Origin: an uncultured Bifidobacteriaceae bacterium
GTDB taxonomy: Bacteria; Verrucomicrobiota; Verrucomicrobiia; Limisphaerales; UBA11358
Length of the DNA: 64,000 bases
NCBI GenBank assembly: GCA_964444085.1
Contig: CAYUGC010000001.1
Span: 9,857-73,856 of the forward strand
Reading direction: 5' to 3'
Part shown: positions 401 through 63,449 of the stretch, one piece after another
Layout of the letters: each line of letters starts with the position of its first letter
Position numbering within the stretch: position 1 is the first letter of the stretch
Position numbers and translations under genes: made by a program
Notes under the pieces: model-generated
Told to the model about the DNA's origin: nothing
The model's input: the letters and a program-made list of their open reading frames with translations, nothing else
Databases searched by the model: none

Positions 401-1462
401 ATGAAAATGAAAAAAGTCGCCATCGTTGGTGCCTCCGGTTACTCCGGCGAAGTCCTCGTGCAGTTGCTCCTCAACCATCCGCACGCAGAACTCGTCGCCG
501 TCACCTCGCGCCAGAACGCCGGGCAGACGCTCGCGCAGGTGTTTCCAAAATTTGCCAGCCACCCGAAATCCAAGACGCTCCGCTTCGTTGAGCCGAACGC
601 CGAAGTCCTGGCGAAGCAGGCTGATGTCGTTTTCCTTGCGCTGCCGCACGGCGTCGCCGCCGAATACGCCATCCCGCTCATCAATGCCGGTTGCACCGTC
701 ATTGATTTGAGCGCTGATTTCCGGCTCCGCAACGCGGACATCTACAAGGAATTTTACGCACACGACCATCCCGCGCCGGAACTGCTGAAAAAATCCGTTT
801 ACGGTCTGCCGGAATTTTATCGGGAAGAGATTAAAAAATCCCTACTCATCGCGTCGCCCGGCTGCTATCCGACGAGCATTTTGCTGCCGACCATTCCGCT
901 GCTGAAGGCCGGACTGATCAAGCCCGCCGGCATCATCGCCGATTCCATGAGCGGCGTCAGCGGCGCGGGCCGCAAAGCCGAGGTGGACTATCTGTTTTGC
1001 GAGTGCAACGAAAGTGTGCGCCCTTACGGCGTGCCGAGGCACCGCCATTTGTCGGAGATCGAGGAACAGCTTTCCTTCGCCGCCGGCACGAAAGTGACGA
1101 TCCAGTTCACGCCGCATTTGATTCCCGTGAACCGCGGCATTTTGACAACACTTTATCTCGCGCCGTCGGAACATTTCAACGATGCCGCCGGTGCGGAGGC
1201 GCTTGGCAAAAAAATCGCCGCGTGTTACCAGTCGGCCTACGCCAACGAACCGTTCGTGCGCATGCTCGAAGGTAAGGCGCTGCCCGACACTAAAAACGTC
1301 GTCGGTACGAACGTCTGCGAAATCGCGTGGCGGCTTGATCCGCGCACCGGACGGCTCATCGTGATGAGCGCCGAGGACAACGTGGTCAAGGGCGCGAGCG
1401 GCCAGGCTGTGCAAAGCCTGAACATCCTGAGCGGCTGGCCGGAAACCGCCGGCTTGGTTTGA
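401..1462 (+). CDS. argC: N-acetyl-gamma-glutamyl-phosphate reductase
   Basis: N-terminal Rossmann motif VAIVGASGYSG. Active-site block SPGCYPTS. C-terminal DNVVKGASGQAVQ typical of ArgC. The start is ambiguous (TTG 395, ATG 401 or ATG 407) because it lies inside a gaaaat repeat. Confidence 0.9.
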   Translation: MKMKKVAIVGASGYSGEVLVQLLLNHPHAELVAVTSRQNAGQTLAQVFPKFASHPKSKTLRFVEPNAEVLAKQADVVFLALPHGVAAEYAIPLINAGCTVIDLSADFRLRNADIYKEFYAHDHPAPELLKKSVYGLPEFYREEIKKSLLIASPGCYPTSILLPTIPLLKAGLIKPAGIIADSMSGVSGAGRKAEVDYLFCECNESVRPYGVPRHRHLSEIEEQLSFAAGTKVTIQFTPHLIPVNRGILTTLYLAPSEHFNDAAGAEALGKKIAACYQSAYANEPFVRMLEGKALPDTKNVVGTNVCEIAWRLDPRTGRLIVMSAEDNVVKGASGQAVQSLNILSGWPETAGLV

Positions 1463-1493
1463 ATTTGAAATCTCAAATTTCAAATTTGAAACC
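1458..1493. repeat. Heptamer-phased palindromic element spanning the argC stop and the next gene's start
   Basis: aatttga aatctca aatttca aatttga. The arms aatttgaaat / atttcaaatt are complementary. A related string, tcaaatctgaaatttgaaatc, recurs at 1743-1765 inside the methyltransferase CDS. Confidence 0.55.
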
Positions 1494-2292
1494 GTCCGCG
1501 CCGTCCACCACGTGGAACGCCGCCGAATACGCGGCGAACTCCGCCGTGCAGCAAAGTTGGGCGCGCGAACTTATCGCCGGGATACACTTGCGCGGCGACG
1601 AGCACATCCTCGACATCGGCTGCGGCGACGGCAAGGTGACGGCGGAACTCGCCCGCGCCGTGCCGCGCGGTTCCGTGACCGGCACCGACGCCTCGGCGGA
1701 AATGATCGCCTTCGCCAAAAAGACTTTTCCGCCAGCCAAGGTTTCAAATCTGAAATTTGAAATCACCGACGCGCGGAAAATCAGTTCCAAAACCAAGTTC
1801 GACGTGGTCTTTTCCAACGCCGCCCTACACTGGGTGGACGACCACGAGGCGATTTTGAGCGGCGCGGCGCGCGTGCTCAAACCAGGCGGACGACTGGTCG
1901 TCTCGTGCGGCGGCAAAGGCAATGCCCACGACGTTTTTCTCGCGCTGCGGCCGGAGATGAGGCTGAAGCACTGGCGCGAATATTTTCGCAAGATGCCGAT
2001 GCCATATTTTTTCTACGCGCCGGGCGATTACGAAAAATGGTTGCCGAAATTCGGTTTCAAAATCCACGCGCTGAAACTCGCGCCGAAAGACGCGGCTTAC
2101 GCCGGCGCGGACGGTTTAGCGACCTGGCTGCGCACGACGTGGCTGCCGTTCGTCCAGCGCGTACCGGAAAATCTGCGCGAGGAATTTATCGCCGCCGTGA
2201 CGCAGCGTTACCTCGCCAAACATCCTCTGGACGCGGACAACAAAATCCACGTCCGCATGGTGCGGCTGGAAATCGAGGCGGAGAAGATTTAA
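1459..2292 (+). CDS. Class I SAM-dependent methyltransferase (trans-aconitate methyltransferase-like)
   Basis: SAM motif I ILDIGCGDGKVT. N-terminal WNAAEYAANSAVQ resembles the Tam family. Motif FDVVFSNAALHWV. The only available start is TTG inside the repeat element, overlapping the argC stop by 4 nt. Confidence 0.7.
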   Translation: MNLKSQISNLKPSAPSTTWNAAEYAANSAVQQSWARELIAGIHLRGDEHILDIGCGDGKVTAELARAVPRGSVTGTDASAEMIAFAKKTFPPAKVSNLKFEITDARKISSKTKFDVVFSNAALHWVDDHEAILSGAARVLKPGGRLVVSCGGKGNAHDVFLALRPEMRLKHWREYFRKMPMPYFFYAPGDYEKWLPKFGFKIHALKLAPKDAAYAGADGLATWLRTTWLPFVQRVPENLREEFIAAVTQRYLAKHPLDADNKIHVRMVRLEIEAEKI

Positions 2293-24375: not shown

Positions 24376-25617
24376 ATGACTTCCCCCTCAATCAAATTGC
24401 CTTCGTGGATTTGCAGCCAGATTGGCGCCCGCGAGCACTTCGCCATCCCGCGCGCATTGCATCTAAACGGCCAGCTCGCCGCGCTCTGCACGGATTTTTG
24501 GGCCGGCCCGGTGACGCGCAAACTGGCTGCCGGCAAGCTGCGCCCGCTCGCCGCGCGGTTTCATCCCGATTTGACGCGGCAATCAGGACTTGTCCATTCA
24601 TGGAACTTGCGTTCGCTCGGCTGGGAATTTCTCCTGCGCCGGAAATTTGCCGGCGAGCCGTATCTTGGTTTTATCGAGGTCGGGAAAAGATTTTCCACTA
24701 GCGTGCGCGAATATTTGAAACGCCGGACGGACTTGAATGGCCGTTCCCTTTTCTTTGCCTACGACACCGGCGCATTGGAATCGCTCGCGTGGTGCCGCGC
24801 ACAAAAAATCAAATGCGTCCTGAACCAGATGGATCCGAATCGCGTGGAAGTGGACCTGGTGCGCGCGGAGGAAACAAACTGGCCCGGCTGGTCCCTGCGC
24901 CGCCTGCAGGTGCCGGAGGAGTATTTCGCCCGGCGCGAACAGGAGTGGTCACTGGCCGACCGCATCGTCGTGAACTCGGAATTCTCCCGGCAGGCTTTGC
25001 TCCAGCAGGGCGTGCCCGCCGAAAAGCTGGTCGTCATCCCGCTGTGCTTTGAAACCGGCGAAGCCAATTGTGAATCCGAAATCGTAAATCATAAATCAGA
25101 CGCTCCGCTGCGCGTGCTGTTTCTCGGCCAGGTGATTTTGCGCAAGGGCATCCAGTATCTGCTCGCCGCCGCGCGGCAACTGGAAAAGGAAAACATCCAT
25201 TTCGATGTCGTCGGGCCGGTTGGAATTTCGCAGGCGGCCATCTCATCCGCGTCCGGCAACGTAACGTTTCACGGCCGCACCAGCCGTGATCAGGCAGCGG
25301 ATTGGTATCGGCAGGCGGACGTGTTTGTCCTGCCGACACTCTCGGACGGCTTTGCTCTCACGCAACTGGAGGCGATGGCACACGGCCTGCCGGTCGTCGC
25401 CACGCCGAACTGCGGCGCGGTCGTCACCGACGGCGCGGACGGCTTCCTCGTCCCGCCGCGCGATGCGGATGCGCTGGCGCAAACTTTTAGGCGCTACCTC
25501 ACGCAGCCGGAACTGCTGCCGGCGCAGGCGGCAGCGGCGCGGGGAAAATCCCGCCAGTTCACGCTGAACCGGCTGGCGGAAAACCTGGCGCAACTGGAGG
25601 CTGATTTGCGGAAGTGA
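24376..25617 (+). CDS. Glycosyltransferase family 4, with a repeat-encoded linker insertion
   Basis: C-terminal domain LRVLFLGQVILRKG...VFVLPTLSDGFALTQLEAMAHGLPVV. The inter-domain linker ANCESEIVNHKSDA is encoded by a heptamer array at 25073-25100. Confidence 0.75.
   Translation: MTSPSIKLPSWICSQIGAREHFAIPRALHLNGQLAALCTDFWAGPVTRKLAAGKLRPLAARFHPDLTRQSGLVHSWNLRSLGWEFLLRRKFAGEPYLGFIEVGKRFSTSVREYLKRRTDLNGRSLFFAYDTGALESLAWCRAQKIKCVLNQMDPNRVEVDLVRAEETNWPGWSLRRLQVPEEYFARREQEWSLADRIVVNSEFSRQALLQQGVPAEKLVVIPLCFETGEANCESEIVNHKSDAPLRVLFLGQVILRKGIQYLLAAARQLEKENIHFDVVGPVGISQAAISSASGNVTFHGRTSRDQAADWYRQADVFVLPTLSDGFALTQLEAMAHGLPVVATPNCGAVVTDGADGFLVPPRDADALAQTFRRYLTQPELLPAQAAAARGKSRQFTLNRLAENLAQLEADLRK
25073..25100 (+). 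repeat. Intragenic AATC-phased heptamer array (4 units)
   Basis: aatccga aatcgta aatcata aatcaga, in frame inside the GT4 gene. Its units match the hairpin arms at 62114-62185. Confidence 0.7.
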
Positions 25618-28468: not shown

Positions 28469-29695
28469 ATGATCAAGTCCGCTCATCTCACGGCGTCGGT
28501 TTCGCGCAAGGCCGGCGGGCTGTTTGACGCGGTGCTGCGGTTGGCGCAGTCGGAGCAGCAGCTCGGCGCGACGGTGAAAGCCTTCGGCCTGCGCGACGAA
28601 AACACCGATGCGGATCTGCCGGCATGGGCACCGGCACCGGTGGCGGCATTTCCGCCTGGCTGGCCGAACGGCATCGGTCGCGCGCCCGGATTTCTTGCGG
28701 AGCTGGAGGCGTTCGCGCCGGACATCTGCCACACGCATGGCTTGTGGCTTTATCCCAGCGTCGCCGTCAATAATTACGGACGAAAAACCAAACGGCCTTG
28801 CGTCATCTCGCCACACGGGATGCTCGACCCGTGGGCGCTGAAAAATTCGCGCTGGAAAAAACAAATCGCGTGGTATTTATTTGAAGCGGCGCACCTGCGC
28901 GGCGCGCGCTGCCTCCGTGCGCTTTGCCAGTCAGAAGCTGATTCCATCCGCCAGCTCGGACTCAAAAACGAGATCGTGGTCATCCCGAACGGGATTGATT
29001 TGCCGTCCGGCGTGACGCCCGCCGCGCCACCATGGAATAATTTTGTCGCGCCCGGGAAAAAAGTATTGCTCTTCCTGAGCCGGATTCATCCGAAGAAAGG
29101 GTTGGTCAATTTGCTGAAAGCGTGGCCGGCAAATCAGCAATCGGCAATCGGCAATCAGCAATCTGGTGATTGGGTTCTCGCCATCGCCGGCTGGGAGCAA
29201 GGTGGACACGAAGCGGAGTTGAAACAGCTTTGTAACGACCGGGAAATTCCCTTCGCCGACATTCGCGAGCCATCCTCCATTCTCCATTCTCCATCCTCCG
29301 TGCTGTTTCTCGGCCCGCAGTTCAACGCCAACAAAGTCGCGTGTTATCATCATTGCAACGCGTTCGTGTTGCCGTCGTTCAGCGAAGGTTTGCCAATGGT
29401 CGTGCTCGAGGCGTGGGCGAATGCCAAGCCGGTGCTGATGACGCCGGAATGTAATTTGCCGGAAGGTTTTCCAGCCGGCGCGGCGCTGAAAATCGAACCA
29501 AACGAAGCGGGCATCGCCGCCGGCCTGCAAAATCTTTTTGCCATGAGCGGCGCAGATCGCGCCGCGATGGGCAACCGTGCGCGGATGCTGGTGGAAGCTC
29601 ACTTCACTTGGACGCAAGTTGGCAGCCAGATGCACGCTGTCCACGAATGGATTTTGGGCGGCGGCGCCAGGCCGAATTGCGTCTTGGACGCTTGA
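28469..29695 (+). CDS. Glycosyltransferase family 4, with two repeat-encoded insertions
   Basis: LLFLSRIHPKKG. AFVLPSFSEGLPMVVLEAWANAKPVLMT. Low-complexity peptides ANQQSAIGNQQSG and EPSSILHSPSS are encoded by heptamer arrays. Confidence 0.75.
   Translation: MIKSAHLTASVSRKAGGLFDAVLRLAQSEQQLGATVKAFGLRDENTDADLPAWAPAPVAAFPPGWPNGIGRAPGFLAELEAFAPDICHTHGLWLYPSVAVNNYGRKTKRPCVISPHGMLDPWALKNSRWKKQIAWYLFEAAHLRGARCLRALCQSEADSIRQLGLKNEIVVIPNGIDLPSGVTPAAPPWNNFVAPGKKVLLFLSRIHPKKGLVNLLKAWPANQQSAIGNQQSGDWVLAIAGWEQGGHEAELKQLCNDREIPFADIREPSSILHSPSSVLFLGPQFNANKVACYHHCNAFVLPSFSEGLPMVVLEAWANAKPVLMTPECNLPEGFPAGAALKIEPNEAGIAAGLQNLFAMSGADRAAMGNRARMLVEAHFTWTQVGSQMHAVHEWILGGGARPNCVLDA
29132..29166 (+). repeat. Intragenic heptamer array aatcagc aatcggc aatcggc aatcagc aatctgg
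   Basis: Read directly. ABBA arrangement of two unit variants. The reverse complement of the array at 58544-58575 uses the same aatcggc unit. Confidence 0.7.
29270..29299 (+). repeat. Intragenic heptamer array ccatcct ccattct ccattct ccatcct
   Basis: Read directly. ABBA arrangement, 104 nt downstream of the previous array in the same gene. Confidence 0.7.
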
Positions 29696-38020: not shown

Positions 38021-39880
38021 ATGCACGAACCATTAAAAAATGGCAGCGTCCCGCTTTTGGCCAGCCAGCCGGCTTCCGCCAACGCTTTTCCGCCGGGAAA
38101 GTGCCTCCATGAATGGTTCGAGGTTCAGTCGGCCTGCACTCCCGACGCGACCGCGCTGACTTTTGAGCAACAGCATCTCACTTACCGCCAACTCAACGAA
38201 CGCGCCAACCAGCTCGCCCATCACCTGCGCCAGCTCGGCGTAAAACCAGAAACGCTCGTCGGCCTCTTCGTCGAACGCTCGCTGGATTTGCTCGTCGGCC
38301 TGCTCGGTATCCTCAAGGCCGGCGGCGCCTACGTGCCGATGGATCCGCAATACCCGCAGGCGCGGCTCGCGTTCATGATGCAGGACGCCGGCGCGGCGGT
38401 CATCGTCACCCAAGAAAATCTGGCGGCGCAGCATCCGATGCCGAATGCAAAATTGGTCTGCCTCGACACCGACTGGCCGACGATTGCCAGCGAGCCAAAA
38501 ACCAATCCGGCCAATTTCACCAAGCCGGAAAACCTAGCGTATGTCATTTACACGTCCGGCTCCACCGGCACGCCCAAAGGCTCGTTGATTTCGCACCACA
38601 ACGTCGTGCGGCTGTTTCAGGCCACGGAAAATTGGTTTCACTTCAATCAAGGCGATGTCTGGACGCTGTTTCATTCCAGCGCGTTTGATTTTTCCGTCTG
38701 GGAAATCTGGGGTGCGCTGCTTTACGGCGGCCGGCTGGTGGTCGTGCCGTTTCACACCAGCCGCTCGCCAGAAATTTTTCGTCGGCTTTTATGCGACGAA
38801 AAAGTGACGGTACTCAACCAGACGCCGTCGGCCTTCCGCCAGTTACTGCACGCCGATGAACTCGCGCCGGCCGGCGAAAAACTTTCCCTTCGTTATGTTA
38901 TCTTCGGTGGCGAGGCGCTGGATTTCAAAAGCCTGAAACCGTGGTTCAACCGCCACGGCGACGAGCAGCCGCAACTCGTGAACATGTATGGCATCACCGA
39001 AACCACGGTGCACGTCACCTATCGCCCCATCCGCGCGGCGGACACGGACAGCAGCAGCGTCATCGGCGTGCCGATTCCCGACCTGCAAATTTATCTGCTC
39101 GATGAAAATCGCCAGCCCGTGCCCGACGGCACGCCGGGCGAAATTTGCGTCGGCGGCACCGGTGTCGGGCGCGGTTATTTCAACCGGCCGGACCTCACGG
39201 CAAAAAAATTTATTTCAGATCCCTTTTCAGCAAATTCGGACAACCTGCTTTATTGTTCCGGCGATTTGGGTCGCTATCTTCCGAACGGCGATTTGGAATA
39301 TCTCGGACGCATTGACCAGCAGGTGAAGGTGCGGGGCTTTCGGATTGAACTGGGGGAGATTGAGACGGTGTTGAGCCAGCATCCAAGCCTGCGCGATAGC
39401 GTGGTCATCGCCCGGGATGACCAGCTTGGCGAGAAACAACTGGTGGCTTACGTCGTGCCCAAGGACAAGGCCCCGACGGTGATGGAATTGCGCGCGCACC
39501 TGATGCAGCGGTTGCCCGACTACATGGTGCCCGCCGCGTTCGTCACGCTGGATGTGTTGCCTCTAACAGAGCACGGCAAGTTGAACCGGCAGGCATTGAT
39601 TCAACAAGAAGAGGCGGTTGCATTAGCCACGGGTGTGACGTATCAGGCACCGCGCACGGAGTTGGAGTGGAAGCTGGTGGAAATTTGGCAAGGTGCGTTG
39701 CAGCGGGAAGGCATTGGCATCCGCGACGACTTCTTCGCACTTGGCGGACATTCCCTGCTGGTTTTCACCGTGATATCGCGGATCGCTGGAACGCTTAAAT
39801 TACAGTTGCCGGTCAGCATGCTATTCGAACACCGGACCATCGAGACGCTGGCCCGGCAAATCGAAGCCGACCGTTCAACC
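38021..39880 (+). other. NRPS module 1 (A-T); hand-read specificity code DFWNIGMVHK (Thr)
   Basis: Code residues read from FDFSVW, LNQTPS, VIFGGE, NMYGITETTVH and K520, by alignment to GrsA-PheA positions 235-517. No condensation domain precedes it. Boundaries approximate. Confidence 0.7.
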
Positions 39881-47910: not shown

Positions 47911-48633
47911 TCAGCGCAGAACGAGGCGTTGTGTTTTCAGCCAGCGTTCCGCCGTTAAATAATCCGGGCATAAACGCTCCACTTCTAGCCAAAATTGGTC
48001 GGAATGATTCATCTGCCGGCGGTGTGCCAGTTCATGCAAAATGATATAGTCCCGCACAAAATCTGGCGTCTGAATCAACCGCCAGTTCAATGAAATCGTG
48101 CCCCTCCTCGAACAGGAGCCCCACCGCGACTTCTGGTTTCTGACTGACACGCGCGAAATTTTAATGCCGTGAAGTGCTGCCAGCTCCATGACTTTCACCG
48201 GAAGTTCTTGTTGGGCGAGTTTACGGAGATGCTTTTGAATCGCCGGCCTCAAATCCACAGACACATTGCGGAGGGTTAAAAACTCTGGGCCAAATCGAAT
48301 CTGGCCCGCTGTCTCAATCTCAATCTTGACCCGCTCGCCCCGAAAATAAATCTCGGTTCCCAGCTTCCATTCATTCGAGGTTTTGGGCTGCGATTCCAAC
48401 TTCTGAATTTGATGTTCCAGCCAGCCGATGTTTCTGGCTAAAAAATCTTTGGCCGTGGATATTGAGCCACTTCTAGGAACCGTGACCCGAGCAACCCCGT
48501 CAGGCCGTAAACGAAGCAGATAACGACGTGCTTTGGGATTATGCACGAACAATAGCGGCACCGACCTTGTGCCGATTTGAACGGTGTCGGGCTGGGGCAG
48601 GTCGGGTTTTAATCGGAAGAAACGGTCAAACAT
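47911..48633 (-). CDS. YgjP-like (DUF45 / SprT-like) zinc metallopeptidase
   Basis: HELAHRRQMNHSDQFW zinc-binding block, preceded by WGSCSRRGTISLNWRL. Confidence 0.75.
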   Translation of the reverse strand: MFDRFFRLKPDLPQPDTVQIGTRSVPLLFVHNPKARRYLLRLRPDGVARVTVPRSGSISTAKDFLARNIGWLEHQIQKLESQPKTSNEWKLGTEIYFRGERVKIEIETAGQIRFGPEFLTLRNVSVDLRPAIQKHLRKLAQQELPVKVMELAALHGIKISRVSVRNQKSRWGSCSRRGTISLNWRLIQTPDFVRDYIILHELAHRRQMNHSDQFWLEVERLCPDYLTAERWLKTQRLVLR

Positions 48634-48654
48634 TCGTGAACGTCTTTCCCTCCA

Positions 48655-49218
48655 TTAAAGCAAAGATTTGACCACGGTTTGATGGAGCAGATTTTTAACT
48701 TCAATTCGCTCCGGGATGACATTTTTTTGAACAAGTGTTTTAAGAACGGCGTTGAGCCATTCACGAGACACCTCAATTGTGCCAAGCTCGAACTCTGGAA
48801 TTTTGCCCTCTTCCTGCAAAAGCCGAAAGTTTGAAAGCCTGATTTGGATACCCTCCTTCTCCCCTTTCAAATCAAGTTCCGCGCTGATGATCCGGTTTTC
48901 TTTGTCGATTTCCAGCGCAGTCATCTTCCCATATTTCTTTAAAACGCCGCTGTTGATTTCTGCTCTGATTTTTTGAATTTGCGCCCCCCTCGGCAACATC
49001 CTGAAAAAGATAATTTTAAGCGTATCCACCAATCCGTCGCTGGCTTTGAATAAGTCCGAAAATTGCATGGGGTCCAATATGGATGTGGCTAGGGTTTGCG
49101 GCAAGTCTCCCATTTGTGAGAACACCGATGCCAACACTGGAAATGGAACCCCGTTGGCGGTTGAATATGTTTTCGGTGCCAAGCAAATCACGCGAATGAG
49201 AGATGCTTGGATGGTCAT
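48655..49218 (-). CDS. Hypothetical protein
   Basis: ORF in the lower-GC stretch. No recognisable motif. Alternative starts at Met36 or Met51 are possible. Confidence 0.35.
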   Translation of the reverse strand: MTIQASLIRVICLAPKTYSTANGVPFPVLASVFSQMGDLPQTLATSILDPMQFSDLFKASDGLVDTLKIIFFRMLPRGAQIQKIRAEINSGVLKKYGKMTALEIDKENRIISAELDLKGEKEGIQIRLSNFRLLQEEGKIPEFELGTIEVSREWLNAVLKTLVQKNVIPERIEVKNLLHQTVVKSLL

Positions 49219-49595
49219 GGATGCGGGCGGGCGTCAGACACAATTCAATTTGTTTTACGACCTCCCTCAACCCGGCCAAGTTCAAACCTTCACCTGGCCT
49301 GTGGCCACAGCCGCGCTTGTTTCGATGAGATACATCTCGTCGTCAGCAAGCGGTTTGCGGCTCCATTCTACATCCTCAATCTTCAACCCTCGCTTTGCCA
49401 TTTGCGTCTTCTGTGCCTTTTTGCGGCTATAAATCCGTGCCCATTCGTGGTTAAAAGTTGATTCGTCGTGGTCGGGACGGTGCCAGCCCTGCGCCGTCCG
49501 CTGTCAGGCGCTTCCCCGTCTTCCGCCGGACGGCTTACGTCCGTTGCGGGATGCCTCCCCGCGCGCCGGTTAGTGTCTCTGTATCTGCAACTGCC

Positions 49596-49715
49596 TTTCG
49601 GGTTCATGGAGTACCGACAACCTATGTTCTCGACCAGCAAGGGAAAGTCGTGTGGGCAGGCCATCCCTCAGGTATGACATTTGTGAAAGTGGTGGCGGGC
49701 CTTTTGAAGCCATAA
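49596..49715 (+). pseudogene. Remnant of the C-terminus of a TlpA/ResA-like thioredoxin-fold protein
   Basis: Translation FRVHGVPTTYVLDQQGKVVWAGHPSG resembles the V-x-G-x-PT-x-x-x-ID-x-x-G-K-I-V end of TlpA-family proteins. No CxxC-bearing N-terminal part is present upstream in frame. Confidence 0.35.
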
Positions 49716-49735
49716 ACCAGTCCCAATCATTTACA

Positions 49736-50194
49736 TCAGTATTTAGTCCCCAAACTTACCAGATGCTCTTCAAAATACCCGGCCAGATTCATAATGGTCC
49801 CAAGCTGTAGTTTTGCGGGTGAGTCTGGTTTTTGGTGGATGTCCTCCGGTTCTCCCAATTCTCTCCAAGCTCCGGTTCTGGTGTCATTGAGGATCTGCAA
49901 CAAAATCTCTTTGTATTCCGGCTTCAACTTTAGCGCCCAGATTCCAGCTTTTTCACTTAAGCATTCCTTCGCCAATTTTTCCGCCGCCTTTTTCAACTCA
50001 CCCCGATGCTGTGTCAAAGATATGTTCAACAGATTCTCCCGGTCAAACGACTCCGCATCATGGTTTCCCTTCGACATCCTGGCCGGAAGCAGCTTTGTGA
50101 ACGGGAAATTTGTGAGCAGGGCCTTCAGCACCTCTGCCTCTTTTTGCTGAAGTTCGTATTCCCATCGATCACCTGTCTGGTTAAGCAATTTCAT
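49736..50194 (-). CDS. Small ClpS-coupled protein (possibly DUF2017-like)
   Basis: ATGA overlap with the clpS stop. Helical, acidic. ILNDTRTGAWRELG and NLAGYFEEHLVSL resemble, from memory, the ClpS-neighbour family DUF2017. This assignment is tentative. Confidence 0.4.
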   Translation of the reverse strand: MKLLNQTGDRWEYELQQKEAEVLKALLTNFPFTKLLPARMSKGNHDAESFDRENLLNISLTQHRGELKKAAEKLAKECLSEKAGIWALKLKPEYKEILLQILNDTRTGAWRELGEPEDIHQKPDSPAKLQLGTIMNLAGYFEEHLVSLGTKY

Positions 50195-50493
50195 TCCGCC
50201 GGCTCCATTGTTGCCTGAAGTTTGTATTTATGGAGCTGGTGAACGTAAAACTCGGCCTTCTCCGCACCTTCCCTGGTCAGCACACTCTTTCCTTTTTCAT
50301 GCACCTCCATCATGTGTTTTTCCGCCTTCTGCCTGTTCCAACCAAAGATTTTCATGAAGACGTGGGTGACATAAACCATCAGATTCACGGGGTCGTTCCA
50401 ACAGATGACATAAAAGGTGGGTGCCAGATCATCGTCGGACTCGGGCTTTTTCCTGAGGACCGGTTTCGTGACTGGTTCTAAAACGGTCGGCAT
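50191..50493 (-). CDS. clpS: ATP-dependent Clp protease adaptor ClpS
   Basis: FYVICWNDPVNLMVYVTHVFMKIFGWNRQKAEKHMMEVHEKGKSVL matches the ClpS core. About 100 aa. Confidence 0.8.
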   Translation of the reverse strand: MPTVLEPVTKPVLRKKPESDDDLAPTFYVICWNDPVNLMVYVTHVFMKIFGWNRQKAEKHMMEVHEKGKSVLTREGAEKAEFYVHQLHKYKLQATMEPAE

Positions 50494-50495
50494 TA

Positions 50496-51836
50496 TTATG
50501 CAAGTTTCGCAAGCTTTTCACGAACGTAATCAATATGGCCGCGCAGCACATAAAACCGGTCGGCAAACGATGCTGGCACCTTGATCCGTTTCACCGCCTT
50601 TTCAATCTCATCCAGCCGTTCGTGCATTTCCTTCCGTTTGGCCGGCGTTATTTCCCGGACAAGCTCCCGCTCCAGCACCAGCAACGCGCGATACCACCGG
50701 TAAAGGCGCAACTGGATCCGCCATTTATAGGTCGCCGGAATCAACCGCAGGCCGGGGATCAGCACCAGCATCATCGGAATAAAAGCCACGAGGATGCGGT
50801 TGGCCAGGCTTGCAATCCAGAACGGAAGCTCGCGATACAAGAACGTCTTGCCGGACTTGTAGTAACGGCTGGCATCCGGGCTAATCCTAAATTCATGTTC
50901 TTTTGGATTGGGGAACTCACCCTGATTTTGGAGCATGCTGGCGTTCCCATGAACTTCGCGGGCCGCTTCCAGCAATAAATCTGACACCGCCGCATTCAAC
51001 TTTGGCCGGGCCACGAGTTCCACGGTCGGTCCGATGAGCCAAACATCTTGCCCCGGCAGGTTTTTGCCGAAATCGATGAAACCTTCTGGCAGGCGCAGCT
51101 TGTTCAAATAGTTGAACCGCCGGGTGTAGGCGTCTGCCTGTTCAAAACTTAATAGCTGAATTCCTGGTGACCGCAGCAACATTCGCATGGTTTGTGACGA
51201 GGCTGAATCGCTCATCATAAACACCGCGTCAACGGTTCCGGCCAACAGCTGCTTCGCGGCGGCGTTCGCATCCAAATCCAGCAACTGGGTTATTCCATCA
51301 GCGGTGAGGCCGTTCGTCTGGAGCAAGGTCAAGGCTAGCGAATGGGTTCCACTCCCAACCGAACCGATGGCCAGCTGCTTCCCAGCCAGCCCAGACAGCA
51401 GGCTTATGTTTGTATTGCCACGGTAGAATATGAGCAGCGGTTCGTAGGCGATGTTTCCGAGCGAAATCAAATTCTGGGTGTTTGTGCCATCCGCCACACC
51501 GCCCTGAACGAAGCCGACATCCACCCGTGAGGTGGGGGCTTCCAAGCGCTGAAGGTTTTCCAGCGAGCCTTGCGAGGGAATGATTTCCAACGTCACGCCA
51601 TTGCGGGCGAGAATGTCCCGATACTTTTCGGCATTTCTTTCGAAGGTGCTTCCCGGCGGGCCGCTGGTGATGGTGAGGATGCGTGGCGGGGCCGAATGAA
51701 TGAACCAGTAAATCGCAAAGCAGCTGATGAGGCTGATAAAGCAGACCACGATAAGCGACAGGCTCCAACTCAGCCCAAAATTCTCCGTGAAGATGGCCAC
51801 GATCCGGGACAGGCTGAATTTGCGTTCGGTTTTCAT
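50496..51836 (-). CDS. TAXI-family (TRAP-type) solute-binding-like protein with N- and C-terminal TM segments
   Basis: LTITSGPPGSTFERNAEKY...IIPSQGSLENLQRL...VDVGFVQGGVA resembles TAXI receptors. C-terminal TM helices and a coiled tail. Start moved to the internal ATG (MKTERKF). Confidence 0.6.
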   Translation of the reverse strand: MKTERKFSLSRIVAIFTENFGLSWSLSLIVVCFISLISCFAIYWFIHSAPPRILTITSGPPGSTFERNAEKYRDILARNGVTLEIIPSQGSLENLQRLEAPTSRVDVGFVQGGVADGTNTQNLISLGNIAYEPLLIFYRGNTNISLLSGLAGKQLAIGSVGSGTHSLALTLLQTNGLTADGITQLLDLDANAAAKQLLAGTVDAVFMMSDSASSQTMRMLLRSPGIQLLSFEQADAYTRRFNYLNKLRLPEGFIDFGKNLPGQDVWLIGPTVELVARPKLNAAVSDLLLEAAREVHGNASMLQNQGEFPNPKEHEFRISPDASRYYKSGKTFLYRELPFWIASLANRILVAFIPMMLVLIPGLRLIPATYKWRIQLRLYRWYRALLVLERELVREITPAKRKEMHERLDEIEKAVKRIKVPASFADRFYVLRGHIDYVREKLAKLA

Positions 51837-52024
51837 GCAACCATTTTCAATCACAATAACAACACCGGCAGGATAATGGTTTTGCCAAGCATCGCAATCA
51901 ATCACCATCAAGCCATCCAAATCGGATTGAGCGTCGTTGAACTTGTCCAAATTCTAGGGCAATCCCTCATCATGGACATCGATCTGACTGGGTTCTCTGC
52001 CAACAAAGACATGCGCTTTTCGAT

Positions 52025-52348
52025 TTGTTAATTCTGGCCATGTATGCTGATGGACACCTTTCATCGGCTAAAGATGAACAATTGCAGAAATTGTTGGCTG
52101 GAATGGGATTTGTTGAGGAACCAGATAGCCAACGTGAATTTGATGCGGCTGTGACCAGGATCAGGCCCAGCATTCAATCCATTCACAAAGCCAAGGAGCT
52201 GGCTTTGGGTTTGGCTGATGAATTCACCGCTCGTCCGCAACACAAGCAGGTATTTGCAGCCGTAGAGCAGATTATGACCTTTGACAACAACATCAGCACT
52301 TTGGAAAACACATTGCTGATGGAACTGCGGATGAAATTCAGGTTGTGA
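52025..52348 (+). CDS. TerB-like small protein (possibly frameshifted at its 5' end)
   Basis: LILAMYADGHLSSAKDEQL and a second half FDNNISTLENTLLMEL fit the two-repeat ADG-x-E pattern of TerB-family proteins. Only a TTG start is available. The upstream ORF end MDIDLTGFSANKDMRFSIC lies in the adjacent frame. Confidence 0.35.
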   Translation: MLILAMYADGHLSSAKDEQLQKLLAGMGFVEEPDSQREFDAAVTRIRPSIQSIHKAKELALGLADEFTARPQHKQVFAAVEQIMTFDNNISTLENTLLMELRMKFRL

Positions 52349-52459
52349 ATGGGAAGTGCGGTTTCCTCATTAAAACCAGCAGTTTTATCTTGGTGAATGC
52401 TTTTGAACTAGCTTTAATGGGCCTGCGGTAAACATTCATACAAATAACACAATAAAATC

Positions 52460-52750
52460 ATGGCCAAAGCACTGACCAAATCCCAAATCGTATCTGCCAT
52501 CGCAGACAAAAACAGCCTCACCAAAAAGCAAGCTGGCGAGATCCTGGAACAACTCGCCTGTCTCGCTTACAAACATGCCAAGGACTCGTTCACCATCCCT
52601 GGTCTCGGCAAGCTCGTTCTGGTCAATCGCAAGGCCCGCATCGGCCGTAATCCTGCTACTGGGGAAACGATCCAAATCAAGGCCAAGAAAGTCGTGAAGT
52701 TCCGCGTCGCCAAAGCTGCCAAAGACGCGATTCTTGGTGTGAAGAAATAG
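52460..52750 (+). CDS. hup: HU family DNA-binding protein
   Basis: MAKALTKSQIVSAIA...GKLVLVNRKARIGRNPATGETIQIKAKKVVKFR has the beta-arm RNPxTGE signature. 96 aa. Confidence 0.85.
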   Translation: MAKALTKSQIVSAIADKNSLTKKQAGEILEQLACLAYKHAKDSFTIPGLGKLVLVNRKARIGRNPATGETIQIKAKKVVKFRVAKAAKDAILGVKK

Positions 52751-52766
52751 TTTTGGATTTCATTCA

Positions 52767-52798
52767 AAGGCACCCTGTTCATTCAGGGTGCCTTTTTT
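52767..52798 (+). terminator. Rho-independent terminator after hup
   Basis: aaaggcaccctg ttcattc agggtgcctttttt. Confidence 0.75.
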
Positions 52799-52986
52799 CC
52801 ATCAGTGATCACCTTGTTGATGAAAGATGAAACAACTGCTGTTGACGCTGAAAAAAGTAAGCCTGGCAGGGCGGGGTTTTAGCAGGCTCGTCAAATACTG
52901 GCTTGAACAACTTTAAACGACTCAATTTGACTTGGGCTAGTTGTTGGTTTTGACAGAAAAACCAATGCCCCTTTGAACATAAAGGA

Positions 52987-53061
52987 TGGTGCGCGCTGCA
53001 GGTTTCGAACCTGCGACCCCTACCGTGTGAAGGTAATGCTCTACCACTGAGCTAAGCGCGC
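52987..53061 (-). tRNA. tRNA-Val (anticodon CAC)
   Basis: Reverse complement folds as a cloverleaf: GCGCGCT-TA-GCTC-AGTGGTA-GAGC-A-TTACC-TTCACAC-GGTAG-GGGTC-GCAGG-TTCGAAA-CCTGC-AGCGCGC-A-CCA. 75 nt, encoded CCA, anticodon loop TTCACAC. Confidence 0.9.
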
Positions 53062-53184
53062 AAAAACTGGCGAATTTGCCCCAAAAACCCGTTCGCAAGC
53101 GGACAAGAGACTAGCGGGCGCCGCCAGTTGTGGCAAGGTTTTTTAGGACGGGCGGGCCAAACCGTGCGACGGCGGCAAGGCGGC

Positions 53185-55846: not shown

Positions 55847-57816
<1,970 letters not shown>

Positions 57817-57818
57817 AT

Positions 57819-57906
57819 CCATCCTGCTCGTCCCCATCGTCATCCCCATTCCCCAAAATAATTTTCAAATTTGAGGATGACGATGAGGACGAGGATGAGG
57901 ATGATG
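57819..57906. repeat. Imperfect long hairpin of hexamer-phased units, second copy of the 287-354 family
   Basis: Left arm catcctgctcgtccccatcgtcatccccattcccc, AT-rich loop, right arm gaggatgacgatgaggacgaggatgaggatgatg. Shares the core catcgtcat / atgacgatg with 287-354. Confidence 0.5.
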
Positions 57907-57914
57907 TTTCCGGC

Positions 57915-58922
57915 ATGACCACCGAGATTCTCTCCACCCATACTCCGGCGCTTTTCCAGAAAGCCGTCCGCCGCGCCGCCGAACTGCTGCGCGCCGGCGA
58001 AGTGGTGGCGCTGCCGACGGAAACGGTCTATGGCCTCGCCGCCAATGCGCTGGACGAAAACGCCGTCGCGAAAATTTTCCAGATCAAAGGCCGCCCGGCG
58101 CACAATCCCATCATCGTTCACGTTGCGGGAAACGAAATGGCCAAAAGTTGTGTGGGGGAATTTTCGGCGGCGGCGGACAAACTTTCCAAATCCTTCTGGC
58201 CTGGCCCGCTGACGCTGGTGCTGCCGCGCGCGAAAAATATTCCTGATGTTGTGACTGCCGGTGGCGAAACCGTGGGCGTGCGTTGGCCGAGCCATCCGTT
58301 CATGCAGGCGGTGATTCGTGAATGTGGTTTTCCGCTGGCTGCGCCGAGCGCCAATTTGTCCAACCAGATTTCACCGACGAACGCGGAACACGTCCGCGCG
58401 CAGCTCGGCGGAAAAATTCCGCTCATCGTGGACGGCGGGCAGTCGCAGGTTGGCATCGAATCCACGGTGCTGGACTTGACGGTGGCACCGGCGCGGATTT
58501 TGCGGCCGGGGATGATCCACGCGGAATCGCTGGCGGCGGCCGGATTGCCGATCGCCGATTGCCGATCGCCGATGGAAGACACCTCATTGAAAAGCCCTGG
58601 TCAATTGAAGAGGCACTACTCGCCAAAGGCAAAATTGATTATCACCTCTTGGAAAGACGATGCCGATCTGGCCGCGCAAATTGGCAGTTGGAAATTGGAG
58701 GTCGAAAATGTCCACATCATCGCCCATACCAACATCCCCGCCAGTTTTGGCGCGGCAAACGTGAGCGTGATTCCGCACGACGCGGAGGCGTTTGCGCGGG
58801 CGCTTTACGGGGAGCTGCACCGCTGTGACGCGGCGGGCGCGAAGCTGATTATTGTGGAGGCACCGCCGGAGGCACTGGCATGGGCCGGCATCGCCGACCG
58901 GCTGCGGCGCGCGGCGGCGTGA
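57915..58922 (+). CDS. tsaC: L-threonylcarbamoyladenylate synthase (Sua5/YwlC-type TsaC), with a repeat-encoded linker insertion
   Basis: YrdC-domain blocks LPTETVYGLAANA, KGRPAHNPIIVHV, APSANLSNQISPT. Sua5 C-terminal domain after the linker. The linker GLPIADCRSPME is encoded by a heptamer array. Confidence 0.8.
   Translation: MTTEILSTHTPALFQKAVRRAAELLRAGEVVALPTETVYGLAANALDENAVAKIFQIKGRPAHNPIIVHVAGNEMAKSCVGEFSAAADKLSKSFWPGPLTLVLPRAKNIPDVVTAGGETVGVRWPSHPFMQAVIRECGFPLAAPSANLSNQISPTNAEHVRAQLGGKIPLIVDGGQSQVGIESTVLDLTVAPARILRPGMIHAESLAAAGLPIADCRSPMEDTSLKSPGQLKRHYSPKAKLIITSWKDDADLAAQIGSWKLEVENVHIIAHTNIPASFGAANVSVIPHDAEAFARALYGELHRCDAAGAKLIIVEAPPEALAWAGIADRLRRAAA
58544..58575 (+). repeat. Intragenic heptamer array ttgccga tcgccga ttgccga tcgccga
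   Basis: Read directly. ABAB arrangement. Its reverse complement contains aatcggc units identical to those at 29139-29152. Confidence 0.7.
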
Positions 58923-60755: not shown

Positions 60756-62111
60756 TCAAAATCCTTCCAAGTGATATTCGTGCAGCTTGCGATGGAACGT
60801 CCGCCGGCTCATGCCGATTTTTTTCGCCGCGTGCGTGCGGTTGCCGTCGGTCTCTTTCAGGGCACGGATGATCAATTGCTTCTCTGCATCTTTCACGGTC
60901 AAATCTTTTCCAGCAAGAATTTTCGGTTCGACCGCGCCGCCGTGCCGCACCGACGGCGGCAAATCCCGCAGCGTCACACGCTCGCCCCGGCTCAAAACCA
61001 CCGCGTGCTCAATGGCCGTCCGCAGCTCGCGCACGTTGCCCGGCCAGGAGAAATTCATCAAGGCTTCGAGCGCGTCCGCCGTGAAATCGTTCACCGCCTT
61101 GCCATTTTCCTTGGCAAACTCGCGCAGGAAACTCTGCGCCAGCAGCGGAATGTCGCCCGTCCGCTCGCGCAGCCGCGGCAGTTCAATCTCCACCACGCGC
61201 AGCCGGAAAAACAAGTCCTCGCGGAATTTTCCGGCCTTCACCAGCTCTTCCAAATTTTTGTTCGTCGCCGCGACCAGCCGCACGTCGGCGGTCAGCGTTT
61301 TGTTGGAACCGACGCGTTCAAAAGTTCTTTCGCCAAGAAACCGCAGCAGTTTCACCTGAATCGTCGCGTCAATCTCGCCGATTTCATCCAGGAAAAGTGT
61401 TCCGCCCTGCGCCTGCTCGAAGCGCCCGATGCGCCGCTCGTGCGCGCCGGTGAACGCGCCGCGCTCGTGGCCGAACAGCTCGCTTTCCAGCAGCGTGGGC
61501 GCGAGCGCCGCGCAATGCACGGTCACGAACGGCTGCTTGGCGCGCGGGCTCAACTGATGCAGCGCCTTCGCGATGAGTTCTTTGCCCGTGCCGCTTTCGC
61601 CCAGCACCAAAACCGTCGCGCGCGTCGGCGCGACCTGCTGGATGATCTCGAAAATCTCCGTCATCACCGGCGACTGGCCGATGATGTTTTCCATCCCGAA
61701 CTTGGCGTCCAGCTGCTTGCGCAGCGAGACATTTTCCACCTCAAGGTTTTGCTGTTTCAGTGCGCGGGCAATCCGCATTTCCAGTTCATCAATTTGCAGC
61801 CGGCCTTTGGCGATGTAATCATCCGCGCCGCGCTTCATCGCGTCCACCGCCAGTTCCTCAGAGCCGTAAGCTGTCATCAAAATGCAGATCGGCGGTTTTG
61901 TCAGCGACTTCGCCCGTGAAATCAATTTCATGCCGTCCTCGTTCGGCAGGCGGTAATCGGTGAGCATCACGTCGAAATTTTCCGACTCCAAAAGATTCAT
62001 CGCCGCCTTCGCATCCTCGGCGATGTAAACGTCGTAGCGTTCCTCGAGCGCCGCGCGCAAACCTTCGCGCGTCGTCTTCTCGTCATCCACGATGAGTAAT
62101 GTCGGCTTCAT
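60756..62111 (-). CDS. Sigma-54-dependent response regulator (NtrC family)
   Basis: Receiver [13 protein letters not shown]...[13 protein letters not shown]+ Walker [15 protein letters not shown] sigma-54 contact loop. C-terminal Fis-type [23 protein letters not shown]. Confidence 0.9.
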
Positions 62112-62113
62112 AA

Positions 62114-62185
62114 GATTTACGATATGCGATTTACGATTTACGAGCCGCCCGCCGAAACGCGCGTAAATCGTATATCGTAAATCGG
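62114..62185. repeat. Long hairpin of heptamer-phased units in the kinase / regulator intergenic spacer
   Basis: Left arm gatttacgatatgcgatttacgatttacgag. Right arm cgtaaatcgtatatcgtaaatcgg. About 22 nt are complementary with one mismatch. GC-rich loop. Confidence 0.65.
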
Positions 62186-62195
62186 AAATTCAATT

Positions 62196-63449
62196 TCATC
62201 CTTTCGTCTTGGCTTCGAGTAACCGTGGTTTTCTTTCGTGCAAGGGCAACCAAATCCGAAAGGTCGTGCCTTTGCCGACGTGGCTTTCCAGTTCGATGCG
62301 GCCGTTGTGCGCGCGGATGATGCGCTGGACGATCATCAGGCCGAGGCCGCTGCCTTTTTTCTTGGTCGTGTAAAACGGCTCGAAAATGCGGTTGAGCTGT
62401 TCCTGCGGAATGCCGCCACCAGTGTCGGTCACGCTCACCCAAACCGCGTCGCTATTTTCGCCGGTCTGGAGTGTGAGTGTACCGCCGGTGGTCATCGCCT
62501 GCGACGCATTCTTCACGAGGTTCACCAACACCTGCTGGATTTGCGTCGTGTCAATCGGCGTCGCCGTCAATTGTCGCGCCGGTTTGGTCTTAATGACGAT
62601 GCCGCGGTTCTCGATTTCCGGTCGCAGCAAATCCACCGTTTTCTCCACCACGTCGTTGAGTGAACAAATTTTCATTATCAGCGGCGAGGGCCGGATCGCG
62701 CCGAGAAATTGCGTGACGATGTAATCCAGCCGGTGAATCTCGCCCTTGGCCACTTCTAAATACTGTTCCAGCTTGCCGGCGACTTCGACGGCTTCGGTGG
62801 TGGGACAGGCTTCCGGCCTGTCCAGTTTCCGTTTTGAACCGGACAGGCGAGACGCCTGTCCCGCCACTTTCAACTTTTTCACCTCGCGCTCCATCAGTTG
62901 CAGATGGATGTGCAGCGCGTTGAGCGGATTGCCGATTTCGTGCGCCACGCTGGCGGCGAGGAGCGTGAGCGCCTGGACGCGTTCGCTTTCGATGGCCTCG
63001 AAAGTTTTCTGCCGTGCCTCGGTGGCGTCGTGCAAGATCAGCGCCACGCCGGAACTGCCAATCGCCGTGCCGTCGAGCGGTGCGGCGTAGAGTCGGAGAA
63101 ATCGCGGACGCGGATAATGCACCTCGAATTCGTGCCGCGTGACGTGCGCGCCGCCGTCGTGATCGGCGCGGGAAATCTTTTCCCAGTCCACCTCCGGCAG
63201 AAATTTTGTGATGTGCAATTCCTCTTCGCCCGGCTGCATGCCGATGAGCCGCGTGACGGCGTGGTTGAAGTAAATCACCCGGCCATGTTCGTCCACCACC
63301 AGCACGCCGTCCTCGATGGTGTTGAACAGCGTTTCGAGAAAACTCCGTTCGCGCGCGAGGCGTTGGACGACGGTTTGCAACCCTTCAGTGTCCAGCCGTC
63401 CGATACGGCCAAGCACTTTATCGAGAAAACTGGATTTGGCTGCTGCCAT
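62196..63449 (-). CDS. PAS-domain sensor histidine kinase (NtrB-like, soluble)
   Basis: PAS block TIEDGVLVVDEHGRVIYFN. H-box ASVAHEIGNPLNAL. N-box LVNLVKNASQAM. G-boxes DTGGGIP and GSGLGL. No TM segments. Confidence 0.85.
   Translation of the reverse strand: MAAAKSSFLDKVLGRIGRLDTEGLQTVVQRLARERSFLETLFNTIEDGVLVVDEHGRVIYFNHAVTRLIGMQPGEEELHITKFLPEVDWEKISRADHDGGAHVTRHEFEVHYPRPRFLRLYAAPLDGTAIGSSGVALILHDATEARQKTFEAIESERVQALTLLAASVAHEIGNPLNALHIHLQLMEREVKKLKVAGQASRLSGSKRKLDRPEACPTTEAVEVAGKLEQYLEVAKGEIHRLDYIVTQFLGAIRPSPLIMKICSLNDVVEKTVDLLRPEIENRGIVIKTKPARQLTATPIDTTQIQQVLVNLVKNASQAMTTGGTLTLQTGENSDAVWVSVTDTGGGIPQEQLNRIFEPFYTTKKKGSGLGLMIVQRIIRAHNGRIELESHVGKGTTFRIWLPLHERKPRLLEAKTKG
62802..62861. repeat. 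Two GGACAGG...CCTGTCC hairpins embedded in frame in the kinase gene
   Basis: gggacaggcttccggcctgtcc (62802-62823) and ggacaggcgagacgcctgtcc (62841-62861, perfect 9-bp stem). They encode AGQASRLSGSKRKLDRPEACPT between the two DHp helices. Confidence 0.7.

Follow-up and report, generated by a model that had tools for sequence, protein, structure and literature searches.

The window analysed here, a 64,000-nucleotide stretch of DNA from a bacterium of the Limisphaerales, carries a tandem heptamer array within an essential tRNA-modification gene, that for L-threonylcarbamoyladenylate synthase (tsaC2/sua5, 57915..58922, + strand, 335 residues). The array (slot 1, 58543..58573, + strand) is read in frame in the linker between the YrdC and Sua5_C domains. 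It fills a linker of normal length and there is no inserted mobile element at the Sua5 locus. Slot 1 is best read as a site that renews itself by mutation, in the first, unstructured half of the linker. On balance, we think it probable that the array is a coding-region heptanucleotide microsatellite produced by a lineage-specific simple sequence repeat (SSR) process and filtered by selection to permissive loops. Several hundred heptamer arrays of about 31 bp per genome mark Verrucomicrobia subdivision 3 / Limisphaerales, a pattern that is apparently undescribed and much larger than the Sua5 array alone.

A heptamer array in the Sua5 linker

The 31 bases of slot 1 (ggaTTGCCGATCGCCGATTGCCGATCGCCGATGg) alternate strictly between the 7-base units GATTGCC and GATCGCC and end in GAT. 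Tandem Repeats Finder (TRF) resolves 58543-58573 either as period 7 with 4.4 copies (87% match) or as period 14 with 2.2 copies (100% match, consensus GATTGCCGATCGCC), and a repeat search returned identical 14-mers at 58543-58556 and 58557-58570. With at least three head-to-tail copies of a 7-nt unit by TRF, slot 1 is a long heptanucleotide SSR. It encodes G-LPIADCRSP-M, the codons of LPIADCRSPM being 58545-58574 (residues 211-220). Pfam places Sua5_yciO_yrdC (PF01300) at residues 23-199 (E 2.6e-61) and Sua5_C (PF03481) at residues 221-335 (E 3e-22); since the first ends at 199 and the second begins at 221, residues 211-220 lie between the two domains. A preliminary description of this DNA had reported an in-frame heptamer array encoding LPIADCRSPM in this linker. 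Sequence, TRF and Pfam all agree with it, and the array is present where it was reported, with the bounds given (58544-58575) 1-2 bases off.

The host protein has the attributes of TsaC2/Sua5: both Pfam domains, the linker motif SPG..HY.P in the form SPGQLKRHYSP, and matches to Sua5 structures in the PDB, of which P. abyssi Sua5 is the best solved relative (PDB 6f87, E 1.3e-68). In an AlphaFold model (AF2, mean predicted local distance difference test score, pLDDT, of 69) slot 1 is coil at residues 209-227, and pLDDT falls below 50 at 215-233.

The preliminary description had held that the array was inserted, and this does not stand. We compared the 120 best homologues, all from Verrucomicrobiae metagenome-assembled genomes (77-100% identity). 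Nearly all are 335 residues long and the alignment is gap-free at the array. The linker of the window protein is 2 residues shorter than that of archaeal P. abyssi Sua5 (6f87), and the RPG..xPG spacer, 27 residues in the window, is within the typical range of 24-33 residues in 124 outgroup representatives (40-58% identity). As slot 1 adds no length relative to the 120 orthologues, the outgroups or the archaeal protein, it is not an insertion. The peptides LPIADCRLPI and LPIANCQLPI, which correspond to (TTGCCGA)n and (TTGCCAA)n in three frames, are common to many orthologues of the close clade. The peptide is thus ancestral in Sua5 orthologues, a finding that the preliminary description had itself named as counting against its proposal. 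A 7-residue periodicity of the linker was found in none of the 124 outgroup sequences. The repeat search gave no inverted partner for 58543-58573 and the region folds no better than chance (z = -0.5), so slot 1 is not palindromic.

Slot 1 differs in length by 0-2 codons among the 120 close orthologues. Phase variation was considered and ruled out, as copy-number polymorphism is absent among orthologues. Phase-variable loci, typically surface or restriction genes, have their frame turned on and off by changes in repeat number. All 120 orthologues and all 81 loci of the wider comparison below are in frame and of near-constant length, the host is a housekeeping enzyme, and between close relatives it is the unit sequence that varies while the copy number does not. 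The statement that such arrays always preserve the frame reflects survivorship, since a 7-nt unit cannot keep the frame stepwise. An assembly artefact was also rejected: at about 31 nt, arrays fall short of the k-mer length used in assembly, to judge from contig names such as k141, and they recur in JGI, ENA and NCBI assemblies of many projects.

Turnover of units within a fixed slot

The wider comparison comprised 81 loci, the window and 80 orthologous loci from species-representative genomes of Verrucomicrobia subdivision 3 / Limisphaerales (69-84% amino acid identity). In some of these slot 1 differs by a few more codons. Period 7 was the best DNA self-match in the variable part of the linker at 65 of the 81 loci (about 80%), and mean linker self-match was 0.53 at period 7 against 0.20-0.30 at other periods. 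About two dozen lineage-specific units occupy slot 1, linked as a network of small substitutional changes: GATTGCC, CATTGCC, AAATTTC, AACATTC, AACATCC, AACATCG, AAAGTCC, AGAGTCC, AGAGTTC, AGAATCC, AGAATTC, AACCTCC, ACAGTCC, GGAAAGC, GCAGAAG, CCGGAAA and others. They keep one register 3' of conserved Gly-Glu codons.

Among the closest relatives, the window has GATTGCC/GATCGCC, L084 has GATTGCC/AATTGCC, L083 has AATTGCG/AATTGCC, L081 has a mosaic and L082 has 4.6 copies of AAATTTC. The slots of L081 and L082 are the same at 23 of 33 aligned bases and have an xAATTxC skeleton in common; the sequences suggest that the slot 1 units of close relatives are related by descent. The strict alternation of two variants in the window looks like a recent two-unit event, the exact 14-mer duplication.

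At the protein level the same position holds peptides of unrelated chemistries among the 120 orthologues. Variation in clusters of at least 90% identity is 2.6-fold more frequent in slot columns than in the others (p = 8e-7), and one such cluster holds both GEISNFKFQISNS and GLAIADCQLPMEET as slot alleles. The contigs with these alleles are L085 and L086, which are 98.1% identical across 5.1 kb without a gap. Between L085:3612-3672 and L086:3612-3672, exactly slot 1, 31 of 61 bases differ; an AAATTTC array in one faces a GATTGCC-type array of the same length in the other, and the patch takes in synonymous changes in the adjoining conserved codons. Judged from sequence, the difference is what homologous exchange of a short patch, anchored on either side in conserved codons, would leave. 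Such exchange between strains would be the reason why slot content departs from the tree of the flanks.

Heptamer arrays across the clade

The window and related loci amount to 1.35 Mb, which we surveyed with TRF (at least 3 copies, at least 80% match). There are 170 period-7 arrays, compared with 3 in shuffled sequence; other periods gave 35 (period 6), 17 (period 8), 10 (period 9) and 6 (period 3). In the window itself period-7 runs number 7, compared with 0.2 in Markov shuffles, which excludes a chance origin of its arrays. The excess of period 7 over chance, and in the survey over other periods too, is that expected of heptanucleotide long SSRs. With the two array slots of Sua5 set aside (the second is described below), 87 arrays remain, or about 65 per Mb.

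Array length is sharply peaked at 30-32 nt (4.3-4.6 copies), and coding, intergenic and perfect arrays are alike in this. By home-made gene calls (coding fraction 90.5%), 123 of the 170 arrays are wholly within coding sequence (CDS), 17 span a CDS edge and 30 are intergenic, figures that become 40, 17 and 30 once the two Sua5 slots are left out. Those in TrpD, in the GT4-family glycosyltransferase and in the histidine kinase occupy variable loops, and arrays are generally found in loops, linkers and gene junctions. Array GC content is 41% against 57% in the loci, and the coding strand is A-rich and G-poor. Trimers containing TA (TAA/TAG-type) are depleted, which fits the need for stop-free reading in all three frames. 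A G-quadruplex cause of the preference for about four units was rejected, as the units are AT-rich and almost none is of the G/C-run type.

The preliminary description had attributed the Sua5 and GT4 arrays to one repeat family that entered unrelated genes. The observation behind this is correct: the reverse complement of TTGCCGA is, cyclically, AATCGGC, the unit that we read in the GT4 array at 29127-29163, and both arrays are in loops, in accordance with the flexible location proposed for them. The family itself finds no support. There are 73 distinct canonical units among 169 arrays, enrichment is seen for the words GAA/TTC and TTTC and not for the tetramer AATC; a common AATC core is absent and a single repeat family is ruled out. 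Identical units at distant sites are found in 3.4% of cases in the same genome and in 1.5% between genomes (p = 0.07), so close to the between-genome baseline that a meaningful link between the GT4 and Sua5 arrays was rejected. A third AATCGGC site, at 62924-62937, proved a false positive: AATCGGCAATCCGC on the minus strand consists of codons of the conserved HisKA H-box HEIGNPL.

Complementary arrays and possible selected stems

Sua5 has a second slot in the Sua5_C domain. In the window this is a degenerate array (slot 2, 58678..58699, + strand; AAATTGG, CAGTTGG, AAATTGG and a final A; TRF period 7, 3.1 copies) that encodes QIGSWKLE and, in the AlphaFold model, forms a helix end and the following loop. 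TRF detects slot 2 arrays in 42 loci, with units that include AAATTTC, CAACTTT, AATCGGC, ATTCAAA and AACTCTC, and slot 2 length shows zero variation in 81 of 81 sequences.

Many arrays have a complementary partner close by. An inverted match of at least 13/14 to two units was found within 700 nt for 39 of 169 arrays as against 2 of 169 controls, whereas direct matches within 700 nt numbered 12 and 4 respectively. The 28 unique complementary pairs are (i) compact intergenic hairpins; (ii) arms about 350 nt apart that bracket a small gene; and (iii) at Sua5, pairs in which slot 1 is matched by slot 2 at a distance of about 100 nt or by the upstream spacer at about 650 nt. Complementarity between the units of slots 1 and 2 is higher within than between genomes (permutation p = 0.0018, with loci that are not independent by ancestry). 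Examples are ATTGCCA:AATTGGC, GATTGCC:AATCGGC and CCGGAAA:GTTTCCG; L001, L002 and L032 have pairs that are perfect and differ from one genome to the next. Among the proteins, LPIADCR is accompanied by QIGNRQSAIGN, and LPIANCQ by QIGNWQLAIG.

As to the Sua5 upstream junction, the 98-nt spacer directly 5' of the start in the window (57817-57914) folds as a strong hairpin (-40 kcal/mol, z = -5.6) whose 3' arm is a GAGGAT/GACGAT hexamer repeat at 57872-57906. The spacer is only 3 nt in L083 and L084, and in other genomes the junction holds inverted heptamer arrays (AACATTC/GTTGAAT).

At L077:8292-8709 a gene of about 120 residues of the 23S_rRNA_IVP family (PF05635, an Avd-like four-helix bundle) is flanked by complementary heptamer arrays. 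Similar cassettes are present in L001, L008, L017, L031, L033, L046, L074 and L076; the units differ between genomes and the two arms stay complementary. The cassette is inserted between genes for an ABC ATPase and a MacB permease; the empty site is seen in the window at 56608-56611, as an ATGA overlap of the two genes. A closing stem forms in the fold of the L077 cassette (z = -3.9). Intervening sequences of 23S rRNA with an IVP gene are cut out at stems of this kind, and resemble the cassettes in having a PF05635 gene with complementary ends. They differ in that the cassettes of the clade are located between protein-coding genes and have heptamer arrays as ends, with a unit that varies by genome.

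These pairings raise the alternative that selection maintains long-range duplexes of RNA or DNA with arrays as their arms, for instance as elements for RNase III processing or stability; the unit sequence would then be free to change while partners remain complementary. The 20-fold enrichment of complementary partners, the covariation of arms across genomes at slots 1 and 2 and around IVP genes, and the excision of IVP-bearing 23S rRNA intervening sequences at comparable stems speak in its favour. Duplexes of slots 1 and 2 from the same genome are also more stable than permuted ones (-21.4 against -18.6 +/- 0.58, with shared ancestry of loci ignored), and significant folds are seen in L002, whose Sua5 has a stem of about 30 bp (z = -6.6), in the L077 cassette and in an intergenic hairpin of the window (z = -2.55, see below). 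However, a strong duplex of slots 1 and 2 exists in only about 10% of sampled genomes, and the majority of arrays have no partner. In the window the two slots are weakly complementary through G-U pairs (duplex -34.4 kcal/mol); the stem between them forms in the minimum free energy structure, yet shuffled sequence does as well (z = -0.5), and it was rejected as a candidate. Nor do mismatches in paired arms carry the wobble signature of a sense RNA: on the sense strand G:T mismatches number 17 and A:C mismatches 26, with no G-U bias, and the antisense duplexes of slots 1 and 2 are the more stable. The mismatch types give no sign of sense-RNA selection and suggest that the pairing signature would be at the DNA level. 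A stem of some 30 bp within an essential coding region has no obvious benefit. An Rfam scan of the window returned tRNA only, with no known RNA family at the arrays. We regard selected stems as an unlikely explanation of the Sua5 array.

Array length, IVP genes and possible one-step writing

Arrays are found at the gene ends of 13 of 14 IVP-family genes in the sample (about 4 independent loci). This co-occurrence, the narrow array length of 30-32 nt and the overwriting of the linker at unchanged length would suit a dedicated, sequence-independent and lineage-specific activity that makes, in one step, runs of about 31 nt from a 7-nt seed, in place of existing sequence or as an insertion. It could be reiterative repair synthesis and might involve the Avd-like IVP proteins. 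Variation in TrpD would suit it too. The TrpD loop is KVSGVG and array-free in 20 of 27 orthologues, and six others have de novo arrays of differing units that add 4 to 24 residues, with net gains that are not multiples of 7. Against such an activity, no enzyme was identified and no template found, the small-step changes of unit at the slot are consistent with ordinary mutation and conversion, the slot swap between L085 and L086 carries flanking synonymous changes as recombination predicts, and the IVP association comes from those few independent loci. We judge one-step writing distinctly unlikely.

Gained arrays, hairpins and other features of the window

The GT4-family gene (28469..29695, + strand; Pfam PF13579/PF00534) has two arrays. 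The first (29127..29163, + strand) consists of two AATCGGC units between AATCAGC units with a terminal AATC (five copies) and encodes ANQQSAIGNQQS; its orthologues have other 7-periodic peptides, or in several cases lack 8 residues, a real 8-residue indel. The second (29270..29299, + strand; CCATCCT/CCATTCT, 4.3 copies) encodes PSSILHSPSS, with PATSNQQPAT and similar peptides of variable length in orthologues. A second glycosyltransferase gene (24397-25617) has a degenerate array at 25073..25098 (+ strand; AATCCGA, AATCGTA, AATCATA, AATCA). A gene with a Pfam methyltransferase domain contains an inverted pair, with an AAATTTC-like left arm at its N-terminus (1462..1491, + strand) and a TTTGAAA-like right arm 250 nt downstream (1742..1763, + strand), the arms being 91% complementary.

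An intergenic hairpin of about 80 nt (62112-62195; 19-nt loop, -31 kcal/mol, z = -2.55) lies between genes for a histidine kinase and a sigma-54 response regulator. Its arms, to which no strand is assigned, are GATTTAC, 4.3 copies (62111..62143), and GTAAATC, 4 copies (62162..62189). The element is absent in the closest relatives L081, L083 and L084, in which the genes on either side share an ATGA overlap; the window has ATGA at both ends of the element, like a 4-bp target duplication. In L082 an in-frame inverted array pair adds 24 residues to TrpD, a true hairpin insertion. Arrays can thus also be gained, and comparison with the palindromic elements of Rickettsia fits such cases, not Sua5.

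That comparison, drawn in the preliminary description, amounts to a mobile element: a small repeat family that transposes in frame into genes and adds surface peptide. The occupied and empty sites of the 62112-62195 hairpin, the L082 TrpD insertion, the 8-residue indel at GT4 slot 1 and the array-ended IVP cassette at the ABC/MacB junction would all be accommodated by it. At Sua5 it is refuted by the equal linker length, there being no added peptide, palindrome or shared element sequence; occupation of the site in most orthologues implies no recent entry; and 73 unit types with no AATC core and near-chance sharing do not describe a family. It is very improbable as the source of slot 1. Chance, or protein-level selection for a periodic peptide, is hardly credible: it has the low complexity of linkers and nothing else in its favour, and is refuted by the period-7 match at 65 of 81 slots and the clade census, by exact DNA periodicity in intergenic arrays too, by an excess over shuffles of more than 50-fold and by peptides of unrelated chemistry in the same slot.

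In a variable loop of the kinase gene, after the HisKA H-box, two in-frame palindromes (62803-62823 and 62841-62861) have the same 8-nt arms (GGACAGGC...GCCTGTCC), and L083 has a different palindrome at this position. These look like non-heptameric in-frame hairpin insertions. Elsewhere in the window, 48000-53100 has a GC content of 0.51-0.56 against about 0.60, contains only small, weakly coding open reading frames (ORFs), ends near a tRNA gene (52990-53061, - strand) and is a possible integrated island. Relatives have TrpD upstream of the efflux operon, a place where it was not seen in the window. A single ORF of 3003 residues occupies 38021-47032 (+ strand).

Discussion

We propose that slot 1 is renewed by mispairing of slipped strands and by conversion within the array, in a register of 7 nt that is favoured, which would keep copies alike and spread new variants. 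The exact 14-mer duplication of the window would be a recent slippage or conversion event. Intra-strand template switching would render nearby arrays complementary, and short-patch homologous recombination, anchored in the RPGMIHAE and SPG..HY.P codons, would shuffle slot alleles between strains. Selection would act as a filter and nothing more, on the frame, on stop codons, on the length of the linker and on whether the position is permissive. LPIADCRSPM would then be a spacer that is tolerated and has no specific function. The proposal accords with the heptanucleotide excess known from some prokaryotes and its attribution to slippage (Mrazek 2007, via PMC4679880 and PMC4692102), and with the preference for some 4 units and the inverted pairs of Xanthomonas repeats (PMC4692102).

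Several observations weigh against this proposal. Simple slippage would proceed in 7-nt steps with frameshift, yet slot 2 is invariant in length in 81 sequences and slot 1 nearly so; homogenisation must then be assumed to be length-neutral conversion or to occur by paired events. The length peak at 30-32 nt is unlike the decaying distribution expected from slippage, and the new arrays of the TrpD loop imply multi-unit events in one step. The covarying arms, in Sua5 slots 1 and 2 and around IVP genes, could reflect selection for stems rather than template switching, and the permutation tests leave shared ancestry between loci uncorrected. A further one is the strong association of arrays with 23S_rRNA_IVP genes (13 of 14).

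A bolder and rather doubtful proposal is that Limisphaerales possess a system that installs and maintains arrays of about 31 nt, independently of sequence and often as complementary pairs, at defined gene and junction slots. This would act either by one-step writing, possibly tied to Avd-like IVP proteins, or through register-tolerant RNA-processing stems. If an array-installing system or selected stems were true, the array in the Sua5 linker would be functional, and not debris left by mutation.

Heptamer repeats have been known as an oddity of certain bacterial genomes since about 1990, from short tandemly repeated repetitive (STRR) sequences, and a general excess has been recognised since 2007. 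The clade offers a comparative system, with hundreds of arrays per genome at orthologous positions, even within essential genes. With many assembled genomes, the turnover of units, the constancy of length and the covariation of partners can all be measured, so that slippage, template switching, recombination and selection become separately testable. The arrays show too that a process at the level of DNA can impose a 7-residue period on peptides in the loops of housekeeping proteins. This bears on alignments, phylogenies, the calling of domain boundaries and predicted structures for a lineage that is abundant in soil and fresh water.

Comparison with known systems

Our literature search found no description of heptamer arrays in Verrucomicrobia, Pedosphaera or Limisphaerales, of arrays tied to IVP proteins, or of slot conservation inside coding regions. 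Rickettsia palindromic elements are 100-150 bp long, have a conserved sequence and add residues. The clade shares with them the tolerance of repeat-derived peptides in frame on protein surfaces, as in the L082 TrpD insertion. Sua5 differs on each count: orthologues are 335 residues with a linker of 27 against 24-33 in outgroups, AATC is not enriched and unit sharing is 3.4% against 1.5% (p = 0.07), and 58543-58573 has no inverted partner (fold z = -0.5).

Cyanobacterial STRR sequences are mainly intergenic, and we know of no description of slot conservation inside essential genes among them. They belong to another phylum and comprise few unit classes. As cited in PMC4692102, those of Calothrix/Nostoc resemble the clade arrays in that several different tandem heptamers, to which no function is assigned, occur per genome.

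Heptamer repeats of Xanthomonas tend to have about 4 units, and some occur as inverted pairs (PMC4692102). The Xanthomonas GGGAATC and Nostoc GGGGAYT repeats are like the clade arrays in size and in pairing, and the same intergenic sites are occupied in related species while sequence and length vary (PMC4692102). In contrast to Xanthomonas, Nostoc and STRR repeats, the clade arrays are not predominantly intergenic, 123 of 170 being wholly in CDS by the home-made gene calls, and do not consist of a few conserved G-tract units. There are 73 canonical units, almost all AT-rich (GC 41% against 57%), coding loops are the main location, and the preference for about 4.4 units comes with no obvious quadruplex motif.

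The broadest likeness is to prokaryotic long SSRs. As relayed in PMC4679880 and PMC4692102, long SSRs of 5-11 nt are described for Burkholderia, Xanthomonas, cyanobacteria and actinobacteria and not for Verrucomicrobia, and heptanucleotide repeats are the commonest long class in SSR-rich prokaryotes, with polymerase slippage blamed (Mrazek, Guo and Shah 2007). The clade arrays agree with what these accounts relay in having tandem 7-nt units, a period of 7 far above other periods and many units. The same accounts give the expectation that units which are not a multiple of 3 avoid coding regions. The clade arrays, on the other hand, are mostly in frame within genes, at orthologous positions, with a constant length and a changing unit.

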